From positions 177,649-241,648 of the forward strand of contig JBAZXO010000001.1 of assembly GCA_041659785.1 (NCBI GenBank): a stretch of 64,000 nt of DNA. The letters run 5' to 3'. The notes beneath the pieces are model-generated. The model was not told where the DNA came from. It ran no database searches and saw nothing but the letters and a program-made list of their open reading frames with translations. The position numbers and the translations under genes were made by a program. This DNA comes from Minisyncoccota bacterium (GTDB lineage: Bacteria > Patescibacteriota > Minisyncoccia > Phycocordibacterales > UBA9973). Numbering within the stretch: the first letter of the stretch is position 1; each line of letters begins with the position of its first letter. Positions 16,087-46,454 of the stretch are shown here, piece after piece.

Positions 16087-16113
16087 AAAAACATGCATTT
16101 CTGCATGTTTTTA
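16087..16113. terminator. bidirectional intrinsic terminator
   Basis: 11-bp stem AAAACATGCA-tttc-TGCATGTTTT with a T-run. Confidence 0.7.
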
Positions 16114-16219
16114 TGTTTGTGTGCCGACCACAGTGATGTTTTGCGAGCACGCAAAACCACGAGGGGCGGGCTGCGAAAATTTCGAGCGACGGCGAGAAAT
16201 TATTTGTAGCCACACAATC

Positions 16220-16453
16220 CTACAAACCTAGAAGCTTTGCTATCTTTGGTTTATCGAAGCCGACAGTGAGTTCGTTCCCTATTATGATTACAGGCACGCC
16301 CATTTGTCCGCTTTTTTCCATCATTTCTTTTCTTTTTTCAAGATCAGTCGCTACATTGTAGTCTGTATAGACGATACTATTAGCAGTAAAGAAATCTTTC
16401 GCCATGTGGCAGAAATGACAAGTTGGGGTTGAATAAATAGTTACATTTTGCAT
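16220..16453 (-). CDS. glutaredoxin-like protein (NrdH/Grx family)
   Basis: 77 aa with a CHFC active site near the N-terminus and a GVPVIII thioredoxin-fold motif. Confidence 0.75.
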   Translation of the reverse strand: MQNVTIYSTPTCHFCHMAKDFFTANSIVYTDYNVATDLEKRKEMMEKSGQMGVPVIIIGNELTVGFDKPKIAKLLGL

Positions 16454-24725: not shown

Positions 24726-26564
24726 TTATTCCCCCGTACGCATCATCTTCAAAAATACATCTTGAGGGATATTTACTCGTCCCCTTTCTTTCATTTTCTT
24801 CTTACCTTTCTTTTGTTTCTCGCGAAGTTTCATTTTACGAGTGATGTCACCTCCATACATATGCTGAGTGACATCTTTTTTCATACCAGAAAGAGTGCGT
24901 GAAGAAATAATTCTACCAAGAGCTTGGCCTTGCACCTTCAAAGTAAACATCTGACGAGGTAATATCTTTGCGAGCTTTTCCACTGCTTCTTCTGCTTCAC
25001 TCTCTGCCCTCTTTCTAGAAACAACCCTAGAGAAAGCTGGCACAATTTCATCAGCTACTAAGATATCGAGTCTAGTCACATCCGCTACTCGCATATCACC
25101 TATCTCATAAGAAATAGACCCATAACCAGAAGAAGTGCTTTTTAATTCATCAAAGAAATTTCGCATCAATTCACGCAGTGGCATCTGTACAGAGATAGTC
25201 GAACGATTGTCTCCGAAGTTTTCCGTATCACCCACTTCTCCCTCATGATCAAAAAGAAGCTGCATAATATTTCCGACATATTGCACTGGAGTAATTATTT
25301 TTAATTTTACCCATGGTTCAAAGACTGTATCTATGTTTCCATCATCTGGAAAATGGTATGGGGAATAAACTTTCTCTTTTTTACCATTTTTCATTAAAAC
25401 TTCGTAAGTGATAGAAGGCATCGTAATCACTAATTCCAGATTAAATTCCCTTTTTAATCTCTCAGTAATAATTTCCAAATGAAGCATTCCAAGAAATCCA
25501 CATCTAAATCCTCGGCCCAAGGATCCGCTCGATTCTTCTTCGTATGAAAAAGCTGAGTCAGAAAGTTTTAATTTTCCTAAAGAAAGTTTTAATTCTGAAA
25601 AATCATCTGCATCTTCTGGAAAAACTGAAGCCCAGACCACCGGCATTGGCTGCATGTATCCAGGGAAGGCCGGTAGTGGATTTTTCGCCATTGTGATAGT
25701 ATCTCCGACTGATGCAATGCCGGGCTTTTTTATTCCAGTCACAATGTAGCCCGTATCTCCAGGAGAAAGAAAATCACGCGGAGTTTCTTCGGGAGAAAAA
25801 GTCCCCACTTCAAGAGCAGTAAATTTTTCCCCAGAAACTGCAAAGACTAAACTGTCACCCTTAGAAACCTTACCATCAAATACTCGCACAAAAACTATCA
25901 CCCCTCGATGATTTGAATATTTAAAATCAAAAACGAGAGCACGTAAATTATTGTCACCTTGATATTTTTCAATTGGTGCTGGAATACGTTTTACGACTTC
26001 TTGTAAGAGTTCTTCTACCCCTTCTCCCGTACGCCCTGAGACCAAAAGTATATCTTCTGAACTACAATCTAATAAGTTCATCACCTCTTCCTTTATGTCA
26101 TTTATCCGAGCTAGAGGAGAATCAATTTTAGAGAGTACAGGGATGATTTTAAGCCCTCCCTGACGCGCCATAGCAAGCGTAGTAAGCGTTTGAGCCTGGA
26201 CTCCCTGAGTTGAGTCTACCAGCAAAATAGACCCTTCTACGGCCTTTAATGCTCGAGAAACTTCATAGGAAAAGTCTATGTGCCCCGGGGTATCTATCAA
26301 ATTAAGTACAAAAACCTCACCCCCAGCCCCTCTCCTGTCAGGAGAGGGTGGCCAAAGGTCGGGTGAGGTATATTCCATTCGGACTGGCTGCATCTTGATA
26401 GTGATACCCCTTTCGCGTTCGATGTCCATAGAGTCTAGTACTTGGTCACGCATTTTACGCACCTCTATTGTGTGTGTAATCTCAAGCATTCTGTCCGCCA
26501 AGGTACTCTTGCCGTGGTCGATGTGCGCTATGATTGAAAAATTTCTAATGTGTTTTAAATCCAT
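24726..26564 (-). CDS. lepA: elongation factor 4 (LepA) carrying an in-frame insert of about 12 aa encoded by a GC-rich palindromic element
   Basis: G-domain motifs AHIDHGKST, DTPGH and SKID. LepA-specific C-terminal domain. Length 612 aa. Confidence 0.9.
   Translation of the reverse strand: MDLKHIRNFSIIAHIDHGKSTLADRMLEITHTIEVRKMRDQVLDSMDIERERGITIKMQPVRMEYTSPDLWPPSPDRRGAGGEVFVLNLIDTPGHIDFSYEVSRALKAVEGSILLVDSTQGVQAQTLTTLAMARQGGLKIIPVLSKIDSPLARINDIKEEVMNLLDCSSEDILLVSGRTGEGVEELLQEVVKRIPAPIEKYQGDNNLRALVFDFKYSNHRGVIVFVRVFDGKVSKGDSLVFAVSGEKFTALEVGTFSPEETPRDFLSPGDTGYIVTGIKKPGIASVGDTITMAKNPLPAFPGYMQPMPVVWASVFPEDADDFSELKLSLGKLKLSDSAFSYEEESSGSLGRGFRCGFLGMLHLEIITERLKREFNLELVITMPSITYEVLMKNGKKEKVYSPYHFPDDGNIDTVFEPWVKLKIITPVQYVGNIMQLLFDHEGEVGDTENFGDNRSTISVQMPLRELMRNFFDELKSTSSGYGSISYEIGDMRVADVTRLDILVADEIVPAFSRVVSRKRAESEAEEAVEKLAKILPRQMFTLKVQGQALGRIISSRTLSGMKKDVTQHMYGGDITRKMKLREKQKKGKKKMKERGRVNIPQDVFLKMMRTGE
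26315..26368. repeat. GC-rich nested inverted-repeat element (copy 1), in-frame within lepA
   Basis: Outer arms cctcaccc/gggtgagg and inner 10-bp arms ccctctcctg/caggagaggg. The outer and inner arm sequences are shared with the element at 45716-45787. Confidence 0.65.
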
Positions 26565-28397: not shown

Positions 28398-30851
28398 TTA
28401 TAATGCTGGAGCTGGGGTGGATGTAGGAGTAGGTGCTGGGTCTGGGGCTGGAGAACCACCTCCCCCACTTACTGTGGGGACTCCTCCTCCGGAAGGAGGA
28501 GAGGAAGTCGTGCTTTCCCCTCCTTGTGGAGGAGGGGTGCCTCCGCCAGACGGAGGCGGGGTGGTAGTAGTTGTTGGTGCAGGTGTAGGCGTAGAAATTA
28601 ATGCTGTGGGTGGAGGTGTATTATTTTGCAAAAATGTTTGCAACTCTGTTTCAGTCACACAGGTATTGTTAATACATATTTTATCTTTTGCATGGAAACT
28701 TCCTGCAAACACATCCCCTATCCCATTTGTAACATCTGCGAGCCATGCACCCACTTTCGTATAAACATTATTAAAGAAGGCTGTCACGAAAGATTCAGTA
28801 GCGGGTGAAATGGTCTGCCCTGAACTTAGCTGAAGGGTGCCAGAAACTGCGTTTATGTTTAGATTAAGTTCTTGTAAAGCTTTAGTTAATATTGGAATAA
28901 CACCAGTAGTATTTAGAGATTTCATTCCTTCTACATCAGTCGCTACTAATTTAGGAACTACAGTTTCGACTTCTTGAGCGATAAAACCTAAATTTTTAAT
29001 AGAACCATCTACTTCATAATTCCAATTATAAACAACTGGTCTTAACTTCATTATTGTATCTAATCCATAATTAATATCTTCAATATTTTTCTTCATTCTT
29101 ACATCTGAAGTACAAGATATAGTTCCTCCAGTAGCTAAGGTACATCCTGTGGTATTTACATCGGTAAATTTTGCAATTATAGCTCCAGTTCCAGTGCCTT
29201 TTACCTCCAAAGGAATAGTCGTACCAGTTATTCCAATACCCACATTCCCCGTACTCCCTACTTGTAATCCTGTATATGCAATATTGTAAGCTTGAGAGGC
29301 GACAGTTTGAGAAGTTGAAACAGTGAGGCTTGTGGTTGAGCCAAATGCAGTAATTGTTCCTGCATTCGTACCATCCGCAAATACGAATTGCGAACCTACC
29401 ATTGCGGAAGTGAATGTCGTACCTACACCAGTGATTGTAGTCAAAGATTGAGATGCTGTGCCTGTGCTGTATTGAGTAGGGGTGACGGAGAGGATACCAG
29501 CAGGTACAAGTGTTCCAATGCCAAGATTTCCATTAATTGTTAATTTTTGTCCTGTAAGAGATCCTGCTGTGCCTGAAAAGGTTCCATAAAGGAGAGAGTA
29601 GTTTTTGTCATTCGCAAGCGTAGTCTGAAGCACATTATTTACATAAAAAGCGTTAGAATCAATTTCATTATAACCAGCTGAATATCCTAAGGCGACATTA
29701 TTGTTTCCTGTGGAGTTTGTATAAAGAGCATTAGCACCATTCGCGGTATTATAATAACCTATAGTGTTTAAATAGAGAGATTTATAACCATTTGCGGTAT
29801 TTTCCGATCCTGTGACAAAAATAGAATCATCCATGTTAATAGCCGTACCAGTATTAGAGTAAAGAGCATCTTTGCCATTCGCAGTGTTGCCATCTCCTAT
29901 AATATTTGAATAAAGAGCATTAGCACCATTCGCGGTATTACTATCGCCACTGAATCCTATAAAACAACCAGGTTCTAAAGGATTACAAGTACGAGTTATT
30001 GAAGCGTTAGAATAAAGAGAACTTAAACCAATAGCAGTGTTATTGCCACCAGAAGTATTCGAATATAAAGCTGAGTCACCAATTGCCACGTTGGAGGAAC
30101 CTGTAGTATTACTAAAAAGTGCTTCTGTTCCGCTTGCTAAATTGGCAGAACCAGTTGTATTAGAAAATAAAGCAGACTCACCTTGTGCAATATTATACAA
30201 TCCAGTCATTGTTAAATTTCCACCATCACCAAAAAAATAATTACTTAGGGAAGGATCAGCTGTAACAATATTAACACCCGCATATTTATAAGCAGAGCCT
30301 GAAGAAATATTTATATTCCCCACAACGTCAAGTTTTTGTGAAGGAGTAGTCGTCCCGATTCCAATATTTCCATTCCCTAATACTGAAAATCTTGTTCCCC
30401 CAACTAAAGTGTAAGCTACACCAGAGTTTGCAAGGGTAATAGCATCTGTGGTCATGGAAGTATCTGAAGCAATGGCAGAAATAGTTACAGTCTGACCTGT
30501 GGTTGCTGGTATTGTAATTGTGTCTCCAACTTTAAATGTATTGGTAAATTTTGTACCTACACCCGTGACTGTGGTACCGCCAGCATCATTTGAAACTGTT
30601 CCTATTCCTGTTGTTTCTTGAGCGACTTGAAATTTCGCAGTCGGTGCATTTGTACCGATACCATAAAAAAGTGTCGTTGGGTTTACATAAATTTGATCAA
30701 CCGCGCAGTTTGTATCTGTGGGACCACAAGTAGGATTCAATGTCTCTCCTGGTGCAAAGCGGGTACTAGGTGGAGAAGCAAAAACAAAAGTCGTGACCGT
30801 AAAAAAAGATGCAAATATAAATAACCCGATAAGAAAGAAATTTTTATGCAT
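28398..30851 (-). CDS. very large secreted tail-fibre-like protein with a peptidase-S74 intramolecular-chaperone domain and a Pro/Thr/Gly-rich C-terminus. Likely start is M27 (MHKNFF...) at 30851.
   Basis: Signal peptide. NTxxG/NTTGxxN repeats as in 22702-23979. SDVRMKKNIEDINYGLDTIMKLRPVVYNW...GFIAQEVETVVPKLV matches the S74 chaperone-of-endosialidase domain consensus (SDxRxKxNI ... GFIAQEV). Tail is TPPPSGGGTPPPQGG... Confidence 0.7.
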   Translation of the reverse strand: MHKNFFLIGLFIFASFFTVTTFVFASPPSTRFAPGETLNPTCGPTDTNCAVDQIYVNPTTLFYGIGTNAPTAKFQVAQETTGIGTVSNDAGGTTVTGVGTKFTNTFKVGDTITIPATTGQTVTISAIASDTSMTTDAITLANSGVAYTLVGGTRFSVLGNGNIGIGTTTPSQKLDVVGNINISSGSAYKYAGVNIVTADPSLSNYFFGDGGNLTMTGLYNIAQGESALFSNTTGSANLASGTEALFSNTTGSSNVAIGDSALYSNTSGGNNTAIGLSSLYSNASITRTCNPLEPGCFIGFSGDSNTANGANALYSNIIGDGNTANGKDALYSNTGTAINMDDSIFVTGSENTANGYKSLYLNTIGYYNTANGANALYTNSTGNNNVALGYSAGYNEIDSNAFYVNNVLQTTLANDKNYSLLYGTFSGTAGSLTGQKLTINGNLGIGTLVPAGILSVTPTQYSTGTASQSLTTITGVGTTFTSAMVGSQFVFADGTNAGTITAFGSTTSLTVSTSQTVASQAYNIAYTGLQVGSTGNVGIGITGTTIPLEVKGTGTGAIIAKFTDVNTTGCTLATGGTISCTSDVRMKKNIEDINYGLDTIMKLRPVVYNWNYEVDGSIKNLGFIAQEVETVVPKLVATDVEGMKSLNTTGVIPILTKALQELNLNINAVSGTLQLSSGQTISPATESFVTAFFNNVYTKVGAWLADVTNGIGDVFAGSFHAKDKICINNTCVTETELQTFLQNNTPPPTALISTPTPAPTTTTTPPPSGGGTPPPQGGESTTSSPPSGGGVPTVSGGGGSPAPDPAPTPTSTPAPAL

Positions 30852-30888: not shown

Positions 30889-32649
30889 TTATAACAAAAA
30901 ATTCTGATTAATGATCCCCCTCTTTGCATTAATTATACCAGAAGTATAAACAGTAGTATATGATTCATCTGGATTCTTGCGGTCTATGGTAATGTGATAT
31001 TCGCCTTTAGCAAGCAGACAATAATAATGACCATATTTATCAGCAACACGGTGGAATATCTCTTGCGGAAAACCTTTTCTAAACACGCGGACAATAGCAA
31101 AGGACATTGGTGTTTTGGTTTTAGCATCCATAATCGTCCCTAGAGTTTTAGGTTTTAAAAATAGCCGAATGATAAGAAGTAAAACGTAAATAGCAATAAT
31201 TATAAGATTCAACTTATTAGGATTAATAGCCAACAGAACAGTAGCAGAAATAAATCCAAGATAAAAAAGATTGGTTGAAATAATATTAATTATCCTTGCG
31301 TTTTTTGAATAAAATACCATGAGTTTCTTGTCACGTTTTGCAAACTCATTCCAGTCGAAGGCAAGGGGGTCCATTGGGATGTTTTTAGTGATGACTGTAT
31401 TTTCATTTAGAATAACTTCTCCACCGAAGTATAGATTGTCATAAAGTTCATCTCTAGTCTTTCCAGCAAGTTTTATGGAAGGTGCTTGATAGTTTGTTTT
31501 TCTTGTTGTAATTTCGTACGGACCTGGAGGTGCCAGAAAACCAAAACGTCCATCTAAGTCTGTTATGGCTGTGCCCACTTCTTTTCCTTCTTTATTTTTT
31601 AGAACTACATAGACTGGATCGAGTGGTTGCTTGGTAACACTATCATAAACCGTCCCCCAGGGTGCACGTTTTTTCCTTAAACCAAGTGATACCAGAAGAA
31701 CACTCCAAAGACGAAAAATTAAAAGGGGTACATCGGCAAAAGAAAATACATTCCCAGCAAGGGAAATTGCGACGACAGAACTTCCACCAAGAACACCGAC
31801 ACCGGAGACAGTTTTTGAAGCGATGGAACCAGCAGAAGTATTAACAAATCTAACAACATTTTTTCTTATTGTCCTAGTTGTTTTATCTACAAGAGTTACT
31901 CCTTTTTTAAAAGACTCAAAAATTGTTGTAGTAACTGAAGGTAATGATTGAGTGCCGCCACTGACTCCACCCCCAACATTTCCCGTAAATCCTGGGGTTG
32001 GTGTTGGACTCGGAATCGGAGTAGGTGTGGGATTAGGAGTCGGGGTTGGGGTTGGGGTAGGAGTTGGTGTTGGTGTAGGAGTTGGTGTCGGGGTCGGGGT
32101 TGGGGTTGGGGTTGGTGTAGGATGACCTCCCCCACCACTTTCGCTAGGACGTAAACTAAATGGTTTCCAATCAGTTTGCAAATAGAAATTATCAGTTCCG
32201 CATGAATTATCATCTAAACAATTAAAACTAATCCATCCTAAATTTTGACTCCATGCATAACCATGAAAAATTCCTAAATTATCAATAGTAACTCCTCCTC
32301 GTGTGGGCGCAAAATTAATCCAACCAGTATTTTGCCCCCAAGCATAACCAGCGAGATGACCTTCCGCATCATTAGTCACACCTCCATTCGTTGGTGCTAA
32401 ATTGATCCACCCAGCTAATTCACTCCATGCATTACCTGTAAGTCTAGAATCTGTAACATGTACATTTCCTAAAACAAGAGCAAAATTAATTTTCCCGACA
32501 TTACTATCTAAACCTTTTGCGTATTTATGAACACCATCTATCGTCCCATCAGTAGCGGAAGCATATGCAAAAAGTGGTACTGAAAACACAAAAAGACCTA
32601 AAAGTAACAAATTTTTTAGATATAAACTAAAAATTTTTTTATTTAACAT
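30889..32649 (-). CDS. secreted multi-domain protein: three GWINF/GYAW repeats, a (PT)n linker, transmembrane segments and two carboxypeptidase-regulatory-like (DxDGxF) domains
   Basis: Signal peptide. Repeats GWINLAPTNGGVT..GYAWGQNTGWINF x3. A PTPTPT... linker of about 35 aa. LKNKEGKEVGTAITDLDGRFGF motif. Confidence 0.55.
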   Translation of the reverse strand: MLNKKIFSLYLKNLLLLGLFVFSVPLFAYASATDGTIDGVHKYAKGLDSNVGKINFALVLGNVHVTDSRLTGNAWSELAGWINLAPTNGGVTNDAEGHLAGYAWGQNTGWINFAPTRGGVTIDNLGIFHGYAWSQNLGWISFNCLDDNSCGTDNFYLQTDWKPFSLRPSESGGGGHPTPTPTPTPTPTPTPTPTPTPTPTPTPTPNPTPTPIPSPTPTPGFTGNVGGGVSGGTQSLPSVTTTIFESFKKGVTLVDKTTRTIRKNVVRFVNTSAGSIASKTVSGVGVLGGSSVVAISLAGNVFSFADVPLLIFRLWSVLLVSLGLRKKRAPWGTVYDSVTKQPLDPVYVVLKNKEGKEVGTAITDLDGRFGFLAPPGPYEITTRKTNYQAPSIKLAGKTRDELYDNLYFGGEVILNENTVITKNIPMDPLAFDWNEFAKRDKKLMVFYSKNARIINIISTNLFYLGFISATVLLAINPNKLNLIIIAIYVLLLIIRLFLKPKTLGTIMDAKTKTPMSFAIVRVFRKGFPQEIFHRVADKYGHYYCLLAKGEYHITIDRKNPDESYTTVYTSGIINAKRGIINQNFLL

Positions 32650-45155: not shown

Positions 45156-45695
45156 TTAATTATAGAGAGACATCGCTTTTTCTTTACTCTCAGAAAAAAC
45201 AGTTTCTACTATTTCGGCGACTTTTTTAGATAATTTTTTAAGTGTTTCTAATTCTGGTTTCTTAAATTCACCAAGCAAAAAATTTAATACGGCCTTCTCC
45301 CCTGTTGGCTTTTTTAATTTTCCAGATGGTGTCGCGGGTGATATCCCAACTCTAATACGCAAAAATTCTTCACTCTTTACAGATTTGATGACAGAAGCGA
45401 GGCCATTGTGTCCACCCGAAGAACGATTAAAGGAAATTTTAATCTTCCCTAAAGGCAAATCAATGTCATCATATATAACTATCAGATCTTTCAAATCTTT
45501 ATTTGTCTTTATCAAAGGAGCGACAGCTTTCCCAGAATTATTCATAAAGGTATCTGGAGTAAGAAATTTAATTTTCTTTTTTTCTCCTTCTTTTTCGAGT
45601 TTCTTCTCAACCATGCCCACTAAAATACGCCCGGTATTATGCCTTGTGTTTTCGTATTCTTTTCCAGGATTTCCTAAGCCAACTACTAATTTCAT
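45156..45695 (-). CDS. pth: peptidyl-tRNA hydrolase
   Basis: MKLVVGLGNPGKEYENTRHNTG N-terminal signature. Length 179 aa. Confidence 0.9.
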   Translation of the reverse strand: MKLVVGLGNPGKEYENTRHNTGRILVGMVEKKLEKEGEKKKIKFLTPDTFMNNSGKAVAPLIKTNKDLKDLIVIYDDIDLPLGKIKISFNRSSGGHNGLASVIKSVKSEEFLRIRVGISPATPSGKLKKPTGEKAVLNFLLGEFKKPELETLKKLSKKVAEIVETVFSESKEKAMSLYN

Positions 45696-45715
45696 AAATA
45701 CATAGTAACATAGAA

Positions 45716-45787
45716 CCTCACCCCTGTCTGCCTAAGGCAGACTTCCCCTCTCCAAACAAAATGCTTGGAGAGGGGTTAGGGGTGAGG
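45716..45787. repeat. GC-rich nested inverted-repeat element (copy 2), intergenic
   Basis: Outer arms cctcacccc/ggggtgagg. Inner hairpins gtctgcc-taa-ggcagac and cccctctcc-13 nt-ggagagggg. Confidence 0.65.
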
Positions 45788-45848
45788 TAATTTATTACAA
45801 AACAAATTCCCCTACCCTGTCAAGGATTTTTTATGTTATATTGTAGCA

Positions 45849-46454
45849 ATGGAAGACATTAAACAAGATATGCCTATAAAGGCAATAGAGAAAACACAAG
45901 AAAAGACAAAGATGCAGTCATTTTGGGAGCTTGTACGCTTTGCTTTTATCGCATTAATAATAGTAGTCCCAATACGCGTATTAATAGCTGAACCATTCAT
46001 TGTGTCTGGAAGTTCTATGGTCCCCACCTTTACAAATGGGGATTATTTAATAATAGACAAAATATCTTATAGATTGAGCGATCCTAAAAGGGATGACGTA
46101 GTAGTCTTCCGATACCCAGGTGACACAACAAAATTCTTTATTAAAAGAATTATTGGTCTACCAAATGAAACAGTAGATATAAAAGGTAATGATGTAACGA
46201 TAACCAAAGGAGACAAAACTACCACACTCAAAATTGACCAGCCTTTCGTAAAAAATCCTGCAAACAATGAAACACATTTTGAATTAAAGGGAGATGAGTA
46301 TTTCGTAATGGGCGACAATAGAGGCGCTAGCTCTGACTCAAGATATTGGGGAGCAGTAAAAAGAAATCTCTTAACGGGTAGAGCTTTCTTACGCTTGTTA
46401 CCAATAAATAAAATAGATGTATTGCCTGGCAATTATAAACAAATAGAACAATAA
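45849..46454 (+). CDS. lepB: signal peptidase I
   Basis: Catalytic SGSSMVPTF (Ser) and IKRIIGLPNE (Lys box) motifs, and GDNRGASSDSRYWG. Confidence 0.85.
   Translation: MEDIKQDMPIKAIEKTQEKTKMQSFWELVRFAFIALIIVVPIRVLIAEPFIVSGSSMVPTFTNGDYLIIDKISYRLSDPKRDDVVVFRYPGDTTKFFIKRIIGLPNETVDIKGNDVTITKGDKTTTLKIDQPFVKNPANNETHFELKGDEYFVMGDNRGASSDSRYWGAVKRNLLTGRAFLRLLPINKIDVLPGNYKQIEQ

Follow-up and report, generated by a model that had tools for sequence, protein, structure and literature searches.

The DNA analysed here (the window) is a stretch of 64,000 nucleotides of contig JBAZXO010000001.1 from a Minisyncoccota bacterium (GenBank assembly GCA_041659785.1, positions 177,649 to 241,648). Between pth and lepB, the genes for peptidyl-tRNA hydrolase and signal peptidase I, it carries a GC-rich nested palindrome of 72 nt, which is the element considered below. 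pth is read leftward and lepB rightward, so that the 5′ ends of both genes face the element. The initial annotation of the window had placed the block correctly between the two genes, leaving their divergence unmentioned, and its anatomy of outer arms enclosing two hairpins is correct to the base at 45716–45787. The GC content, which it had put far above that of the flanks, is 0.569, against 0.35 and 0.29 in the 100-nt flanks and 36% in the window. The features discussed are listed in Table 1; contigs and loci used for comparison carry L numbers.

Table 1. Features of the pth–lepB spacer, of the lepA copy and of related elements (coordinates refer to the window unless a locus is named)
Feature	Position	Strand	Remark
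Whole nested palindrome	45715..45788	.	72-nt core 45716–45787 plus an A/T pair lengthening the outer stem
Outer left arm CCTCACCCC	45716..45724	+	complement of the third (G/T-rich) block; pairs with 45779–45787 in every fold
Accessory hairpin X, GTCTGCC-TAA-GGCAGAC	45726..45742	+	read from the sequence and the folds
Hairpin Y	45745..45775	+	core common to the lepA copy and E. coli BoxC/TM
Polypyrimidine arm of Y, CCCCTCTCC	45745–45753		
Loop of Y, AAACAAAATGCTT	45754–45766		13 nt
Polypurine arm of Y, GGAGAGGGG	45767–45775		
TTA linker	45776–45778		
Third block GGGGTGAGG	45779–45787	+	mirror repeat of the purine arm with T opposite A, the type A triplex-motif arrangement
pth (peptidyl-tRNA hydrolase, PF01195)	45156..45695	-	start codon 20 nt from the element
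lepB (signal peptidase I, Peptidase_S26)	45849..46454	+	start codon 61 nt from the element
Putative extended −10 box of pth, TGT-TACTAT	45702..45710	-	6 nt before ATG; inferred
Putative extended −10 box of lepB, TGT-TATATT	45834..45842	+	6 nt before ATG; inferred
Conserved TTGACA inside block AAAATCCTTGACAGG	45818..45823	-	invariant in 6/6 spacers; possibly a distal −35 or operator
Second copy, inside lepA (24726–26564, minus strand)	26314..26369	.	core 26315–26368; in-frame translation TSPDLWPPSPDRRGAGGEV
Third, related nested GC-rich element	28455..28565	-	stems ACCACCCC / CCCCTCCT / TCTCCTCCT; TM finder match
LepA β2–β3 turn			five in-frame elements
Second LepA site, about residue 200, before LRALVFDFKY	L133 6723–6774; L136 3038–3091; L139 724–785		three elements of the CCTCCCCC/GGGGGAGG/GGAGGGGG variant
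Leucyl-tRNA synthetase (LeuRS)	L134 777–4301		two short TM elements in frame
TsaD	L146 7938–9056		one short TM element in frame

The outer stem is a perfect 10-bp helix once A45715 and T45788 are added, and the element therefore possesses the terminal inverted repeats expected of a miniature inverted-repeat transposable element (MITE). Folding calculations, which consider Watson–Crick pairing only, predict exactly the nested three-helix structure for either strand. The RNA fold energies are −52.7 kcal/mol for the plus and −57.2 kcal/mol for the minus strand (z = −7.8 and −10.3; none of 200 shuffles equalled them), and the corresponding DNA values are −31.6 and −32.7 kcal/mol (z = −8.9 and −10.3). 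These models thus predict a strong potential for structure. Stop codons close five of the six reading frames of the spacer copy. The element is identical in L001, an independently assembled contig, and the sequence of hairpin X was found only once in about 1.2 Mb of related DNA. Rfam covariance models detected only tRNAs in the window, the best local match to the element scoring 23 bits against a gathering score of 95; a known RNA family was ruled out for the spacer element, as the search was empty at both gathering and permissive thresholds.

By its sequence and architecture, the block can be assigned to the small non-coding, GC-rich palindromic repeats described as BoxC, PIT elements or the intrastrand triplex motif (TM), here in a closed, nested form. 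Such elements have been known for about 30 years, in hundreds of genomes, and the BoxC and PIT literature reportedly includes work by Bachellier in the 1990s and by Hoyne and Maher in 2000. The TM rule comprises a pyrimidine block, a complementary purine block and a third block mirroring the purine block, with G opposite G and A or T opposite A. Positions 45745–45787 form a TM motif whose loop is longer and whose linker is TTA, the core being CCCCTCTCC-loop-GGAGAGGGG-TTA-GGGGTGAGG. A purpose-written TM finder (stem of 6–15 nt, at most one mismatch) matched 45745–45786 (+), 26328–26368 (+) and 26314–26347 (−), all with 0 mismatches. In the related DNA (about 1.2 Mb), a mirror block followed 20 of 46 pyrimidine/purine hairpins, compared with 1 of 46 for the direct-repeat control.

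The E. coli motif has been named, in order, BoxC, PIT elements and TM_ECO (Holder et al. 2015, PMC4666352). The sequence CCCTCTCCC-loop-GGGAGAGGG-TTA (or CCG/TCG/CTG)-GGGTGAGGG occurs 23 times in E. coli K-12, always between genes, the type A motif being GGGAGAGGG-TTA-GGGTGAGGG (PMC4666352, Table 1). According to the same source, the single strands form an intrastrand triplex in vitro that was undetected in vivo, TM loci go with local variability between strains, and the motif is present in more than 260 prokaryotic genomes. A BLAST search of the element against E. coli genomes gave no match, the query being short and of low complexity; for that reason, the comparison was made from the table in PMC4666352 and the MG1655 locus, where the pair of copies at hrpB–mrcB (NC_000913, 164547–164631) was read directly. 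The word order of E. coli types A and B, CCCTCTCC-loop-GGAGAGGG-TTA/CNG-GGGTGAGG (Table 1 of PMC4666352), is matched by the present element.

The likeness extends to the core words, their order and the linkers, as well as to the third block as a mirror repeat with T opposite A. Both kinds of element are GC-rich, measure about 35 nt per unit, often occur as inverted pairs, are dispersed and lack coding capacity; both vary locally between strains and occur in many phyla. The difference lies in how the motif is closed. In E. coli, the third, G-rich block of a TM finds its partner in the C-rich block of a neighbouring inverted unit, whereas in the Paceibacterota element a C-rich block on the other side of its own unit closes the motif. 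In addition, accessory mini-hairpins are inserted, and the host genome has 36% GC. The ITxF loop rule, which allows 1–6 nt for both loops, excludes the spacer copy, with its hairpin loop of 13 nt and linker of 3 nt; the sense strand of the lepA copy, with a loop of 5 nt and a linker of 3 nt, conforms to it. With the closing arm present, the nested hairpin is the predicted ground state and would compete with any triplex on the single strand. The E. coli copies are always intergenic, whereas most copies seen in the Paceibacterota lineage lie in frame in genes; in the window, the spacer copy is intergenic, and the lepA copy and at least ten others in relatives are inside open reading frames (ORFs). 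The searchable literature contained no report of the closed nested architecture with accessory hairpins, of an occurrence in the Candidate Phyla Radiation (CPR), or of frequent in-frame residence in essential genes. The kind of element is already known, and the in-frame occupancy of CPR genes appears to be new. The modular family proposed in the initial annotation, with an outer inverted repeat, a CCCTCTCC/GGAGAGGG hairpin and variable accessory hairpins, stands; what it had missed is that the core was already described as BoxC/PIT/TM.

The lepA copy has the same outer arms and inner hairpin as the spacer copy, its left arm lying at 26315–26323; the two arm pairs that had been noted as shared with a lepA-internal element recur at 26315–26368. 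On the lepA sense strand, this copy is a TM motif with a CTG linker. Single 9-mer arms, allowed one mismatch, were not significant alone. The composite CCTCACCC..CCCTCTCC..GGAGAGGG gave four matches in the window (two elements on two strands) against none in 100 shuffles. The pattern search for further copies suggested at the outset thus found the composite beyond chance in the window, with more copies in relatives and in other phyla. As the AlphaFold model of LepA is poor (mean predicted local distance difference test score, pLDDT, of 52) and served only to mark the unstructured stretch at residues 67–83, the insert was placed by alignment: it falls in a 12-residue gap relative to the solved EF4 structure 5IMQ, between RGITIK and DTPGH, in the LepA β2–β3 turn. 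The third element of the window forms an in-frame part of the C-terminal tail in a protein of 843 aa with a Peptidase_S74 domain (Pfam). It shares its stems exactly with the LepA-loop insert of L195, but not its loops.

Comparison of the pth–lepB spacer in relatives, another step proposed earlier, revealed identical, empty, unrelated-insert and variant-swapped spacers. The spacer is empty in L327, L329 and L330, whose pth genes are 96%, 89% and 86% identical to the window at the nucleotide level, and L331 (pth 82% identical) has an unrelated insert. In L328, where pth and lepB are 93–94% identical to the window, a different variant of the family occupies the same point: ATACCCCTACC-TAG-CCTCCCCC-TATATA-GGGGGAGG-T-GCCAAAGGC-GGAGGGGGTAT. 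All three of its blocks (CCTCCCCC / GGGGGAGG / GGAGGGGG) are changed, with pairing and mirror rule kept, and this same variant is also found at the second LepA site of L133, L136 and L139. L327 is a 1382-nt contig in which pth is 96% identical and the lepB side 68%; its breakpoint in the spacer marks either a recombinant or an assembly chimera.

A TGnTAnnnT box is located 6–7 nt upstream of the ATG of both pth and lepB and is kept in all six aligned orthologous spacers, those of L328–L330 having it at the same positions. Because these conserved boxes adjoin both start codons, the two genes probably have extended −10 promoters and leaderless mRNAs. If so, the element would fill the sole free stretch between the two putative core promoters, where it would displace the −35/upstream region of the pth promoter, which an extended −10 could manage without. 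The conserved TTGACA at 45823–45818 (minus strand) has no obvious partner.

This arrangement raises the question of whether the element is a functional cis-element of the divergent pair. At the DNA level, it could act as a cruciform or other non-B structure that buffers supercoiling or insulates the promoters, or through a −35-like CAGACA 17 nt upstream of the pth −10 box. At the RNA level, a longer pth transcript initiated at the conserved TTGACA could carry the element as a very stable structure at its 5′ end. The extreme predicted stability on both strands and the position exactly between the two putative promoters would suit such a role, as would the conserved TTGACA block 18 nt upstream of a TGTAAT preceding the element and the two different variants found at the same position in two strains. 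Nevertheless, the spacers described above speak against it, an insulator included: three relatives with pth 86–96% identical have nothing there and L331 has only an unrelated insert, with the start-proximal −10 boxes kept in all. The same element type also resides within coding regions, where a role of this kind would be meaningless, and the E. coli homologues have neither promoter nor terminator activity (PMC4666352). A cis-regulatory function is consequently considered unlikely. Most likely, the spacer element is a dispensable passenger with no function required by pth or lepB, and any influence on the pth promoter would be incidental.

The initial annotation had also offered a terminator role. 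A GC-rich stable hairpin with AT-rich flanks does resemble an intrinsic, possibly bidirectional, transcription terminator, but both neighbouring genes begin at the element rather than end there, no T run directly follows either outer arm, and no terminator-like site (hairpin plus T-run) was called at it. With the E. coli homologues inactive in this respect as well (PMC4666352), this role is extremely unlikely and the suggestion has to be abandoned.

Gain and loss can be followed in lepA, too. The closest relative, L006 (LepA 92% identical in amino acids, lepA 85% in nucleotides), has no element and an ordinary 21-residue loop. In L002 and L003, the element is inverted at the same codon and is identical at 55 of 56 positions after reverse-complementing; the lepA gene of L002 is otherwise 75% identical, and about 49% at synonymous third positions. 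L004 carries a 58-nt variant that enters 9 nt further on and in another frame, and L334 carries a decayed copy. In the LepA tree, carriers are scattered among insert-free sequences, and the borders of the lepA insert are identical in either orientation. The 40 codons on either side of the insert show no greater similarity than the remainder of the gene (window versus L002/L004), so that spread via homologous recombination of the flanks is unsupported for these pairs. Given the near-identical inverted element in diverged lepA genes, the unremarkable flanks and the scattered carriers, the element appears to arrive on its own, repeatedly, in either orientation and independently of its flanks. Polymorphism among relatives is, at the level of sequence, plain at both loci.

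Two further candidate explanations of the lepA pattern were set aside. An apparent precise excision (P0079, an insert-free LepA within a carrier clade) was withdrawn as evidence, the contig concerned, L333, being mosaic or chimeric: it is 100% identical to L195 from about nt 760 onward and 75–85% before. Strict site-specific integration is weakened by the LepA-loop junctions, which differ by 0–9 nt between lineages.

TM-type elements number 17 in 1.18 Mb of related Paceibacterota DNA, against none in five shuffles; this sample consists mostly of lepA neighbourhoods, and lepA is over-sampled in it. At least 11 of the 17 are in frame in long ORFs. Besides the LepA β2–β3 turn, these include the second LepA site, genes for LeuRS and TsaD (Table 1) and, in the window itself, the gene of the S74-domain protein. 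The LeuRS of L134 also has inserted Ser_hydrolase and DUF559 domains. In-frame occupancy of genes is thus evident from the reading frames. Because the coding copies are stop-free in the frame used and the spacer copy is closed in most frames, the inserts are arguably translated, with selection filtering which variants survive where.

The β2–β3 loop of LepA receives inserts of other kinds as well. About one-third of the 120 closest LepA homologues, and many distant ones, have some hairpin-forming insert there, including unrelated AT-rich families. As these families are unrelated and the junctions vary, the LepA ‘hotspot’ is better explained by tolerance than by sequence-specific targeting. Across Patescibacteria, the turn (residues ~65–85; window 26300–26380; loci L127–L206) ranges from 17 to 53 residues. 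Its inserts are both GC-rich and AT-rich; that of L181 is a 13-bp perfect inverted repeat, and those of L139 and L196 are AT-rich palindromes.

Outside this lineage, a scan of species-representative genomes for CCTCACCC..CCCTCTCC..GGAGAGGG yielded at least 120 loci, the phyla among the matches listed being Pseudomonadota, Planctomycetota, Chloroflexota, Cyanobacteria, Bacteroidota, Verrucomicrobiota and others. A closing arm within 60 nt was present in about one-sixth of the genomic instances among the matches listed. Complete nested copies whose modules follow the same order were found in Richelia, Chloroflexota and Melioribacteraceae; the Richelia copy (L017) keeps the module order of the spacer copy but fills the accessory slot with another small hairpin. 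The lepA-type core was also found, unchanged and with its GGCCAAAGGCC mini-hairpin, in one Thermodesulfobacteriota metagenome-assembled genome and twice in one viral contig. Viral contigs contained at least 120 loci with the same pattern; IMG/VR includes prophage regions, and such matches are no proof of viral transfer. Judged by these matches, the family is modular and pan-bacterial and not peculiar to this genome.

Taken together, the observations are best accounted for by a small, non-autonomous palindromic repeat of the BoxC/PIT/TM class that, in the Candidatus Paceibacterota lineage, is gained, lost, inverted and swapped over short evolutionary time and persists only at permissive sites. 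This account is considered probable, if by no means secure. Persistence would be confined to places where the genome tolerates some 55–110 extra bases. One type of permissive site would be the few free nucleotides between divergent promoters hugging their start codons, as for the spacer copy; the other would be protein surface loops, where stop-free variants can be translated in frame, as for the lepA copy. The description of the element as REP-like or mobile DNA had, accordingly, the right general direction, in view of the presence/absence, orientation and variant-swap polymorphism, and it had overlooked the pan-bacterial spread and the in-frame reading in lepA.

Several observations weigh against this account. 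No target-site duplication was found at either copy (flanks AAATT and TCTATG in pth sense, GAATAT and TTTTGT in lepA), and no transposase or other mobilising gene was found linked to the element. A tblastn search detected no Y1 transposase in the 64-kb window, and the hairpins beside the Y1 transposases of relatives are of other, unrelated kinds. The lepA insertion replaces 4–6 loop codons instead of being a pure addition, which no standard transposition mechanism predicts. The E. coli TM likewise shows no link to transposases or mobile elements (PMC4666352). The window, with two copies and one related element, is the only part of the genome viewed. Two variants at one spacer position could reflect a need for such an element in part of the lineage, and the near-identity of the motif across phyla could equally represent a conserved function or a structural constraint.

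The element is probably mobile, and it would move through single-stranded hairpin intermediates or template switching. Copying coupled to replication or repair would fit better than classical cut-and-paste, since target-site duplications are lacking, codons are replaced, either orientation occurs with identical borders and no cognate enzyme was found. One candidate process is a template switch where a fork has stalled, for which single strands able to fold into hairpins or triplexes would be good substrates; alternatively, a trans-acting single-strand enzyme might move the element.

A related view is that the turnover reflects an instability or recombination hotspot of non-B DNA (triplex or hairpin), with polymerase stalling and template switching in place of transposition; the element would then be retained, or would recur, for provoking rearrangement nearby. 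Holder et al. tie E. coli TM loci to increased variability in their vicinity, and in vitro polymerase is blocked by PIT elements. The similarity breakpoint in the L327 spacer (pth 96%, lepB 68%) would agree with a hotspot, as would the replacement, not duplication, of target codons and the orientation flip with identical borders, which is expected of a strand switch between the outer arms. Such instability can explain loss and inversion, but not how genomes saturated for synonymous changes come to share a 98% identical element, nor the same sequence in distant phyla. Moreover, E. coli gave no sign of a triplex in vivo, and the hotspot overlaps the favoured account on mechanism. As an explanation in its own right, it is therefore rather unlikely.

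The same can be asked of repetitive extragenic palindromes (REPs) and their paired forms (REPINs), moved by a REP-associated Y1/HUH transposase (RAYT) encoded elsewhere in the genome. The present element, too, is a palindromic, dispersed, extragenic-capable repeat, occurring singly or in inverted pairs as REPs do, and single-strand hairpins are likely the active form in both. Genes for Y1_Tnp proteins of 218 aa do occur in related Paceibacterota (L004 20694–21350; L329 2761–3417). However, these have hairpins of their own that are unrelated to the element, and none is present in the window. REPs carry a conserved GTAG or CGTC tetranucleotide at one palindrome end, according to PMC3733652; neither tag is found at the element ends ACCTCACC / GGTGAGGT. 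The copy density is low, at about one per 70 kb, no cognate RAYT was found and copies occupy coding regions, all unlike REP/REPIN–RAYT systems, and movement by a RAYT is very unlikely. The two Y1 (HUH) transposase genes are 37% identical to each other, lie at variable positions and are each flanked by their own perfect hairpins (GTTAAACACTCGGTGTTTAAC; CCACTGAGGCAAGACCTCAGTGG), giving them a RAYT/REP-type look in Paceibacterota.

Other small repeats resemble the element in part. Rickettsia palindromic elements (RPEs) are, reportedly since Ogata et al. in 2000, in-frame palindromic repeats of 100–150 bp in unrelated housekeeping genes, AT-richer and restricted to Rickettsia. Like RPEs, the present elements lie in frame in unrelated housekeeping genes and in surface loops, lack a transposase of their own and vary in presence among close relatives; unlike them, the Paceibacterota family measures 55–110 bp, has a pan-bacterial TM core and takes both orientations at one site. 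The resemblance to RPEs would thus be one of behaviour and not of sequence, the two being set apart by composition and size. MITEs such as Correia, ERIC and the cyanobacterial Nezha share the terminal inverted repeats, the small size, the non-autonomous character and the nested hairpin modules; the Paceibacterota element differs in having no target-site duplication and in replacing target bases in lepA. The small dispersed repeats of cyanobacteria, said to have been described by Elhai et al. in 2008, are comparable in small size and nested hairpin modules. A parent insertion sequence sharing these ends would show as a long pair of the outer arms; none was noticed among the related loci, where no systematic search for one was made.

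A broader interpretation is tentative and falls short of probable. TM/BoxC nested palindromes may be pan-bacterial, possibly virus-carried miniature mobile DNA that survives in CPR mainly as translated, in-frame surface-loop inserts of essential proteins (LepA, LeuRS, TsaD), because these reduced genomes have almost no intergenic space. If that were true, it would constitute an RPE-like phenomenon outside Rickettsia, and conserved genes in which the insert is absent, present or inverted could disclose the way in which BoxC/TM elements move. Insertion in either orientation, with a few target bases replaced and none duplicated, would then point to template-switch or repair-coupled copying, not to a classical transposase.

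Unlike those of E. coli, the BoxC/TM elements described here are embedded in highly conserved coding sequence, which allows base-by-base alignment of the empty, filled, inverted and swapped alleles. Both the mechanism of insertion and the structural tolerance that proteins such as EF4 have for it thereby become open to direct testing. Annotators should be aware that CPR housekeeping proteins can owe differences in length to repeats. The result for the pth–lepB spacer is modest, in that the element there is most likely a dispensable passenger and not a regulatory signal; the spacer copy is itself of low interest, and the alleles of the family in conserved genes are more telling about the spread of such elements.

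Two other compositional features of the window are worth recording. G/T-rich repeats with a 12-nt period are present on the plus strand at 31993–32124 and 28408–28619; they may code for linkers, rich in Pro, Thr and Gly, of large surface proteins encoded on the minus strand. At 16120–16200, a stretch with no Rfam match and a GC content of 0.68 over 40 nt lies between tRNA-Arg(CCT) and a glutaredoxin-like ORF (16220–16453, minus strand), after a terminator-like hairpin at 16088–16112.

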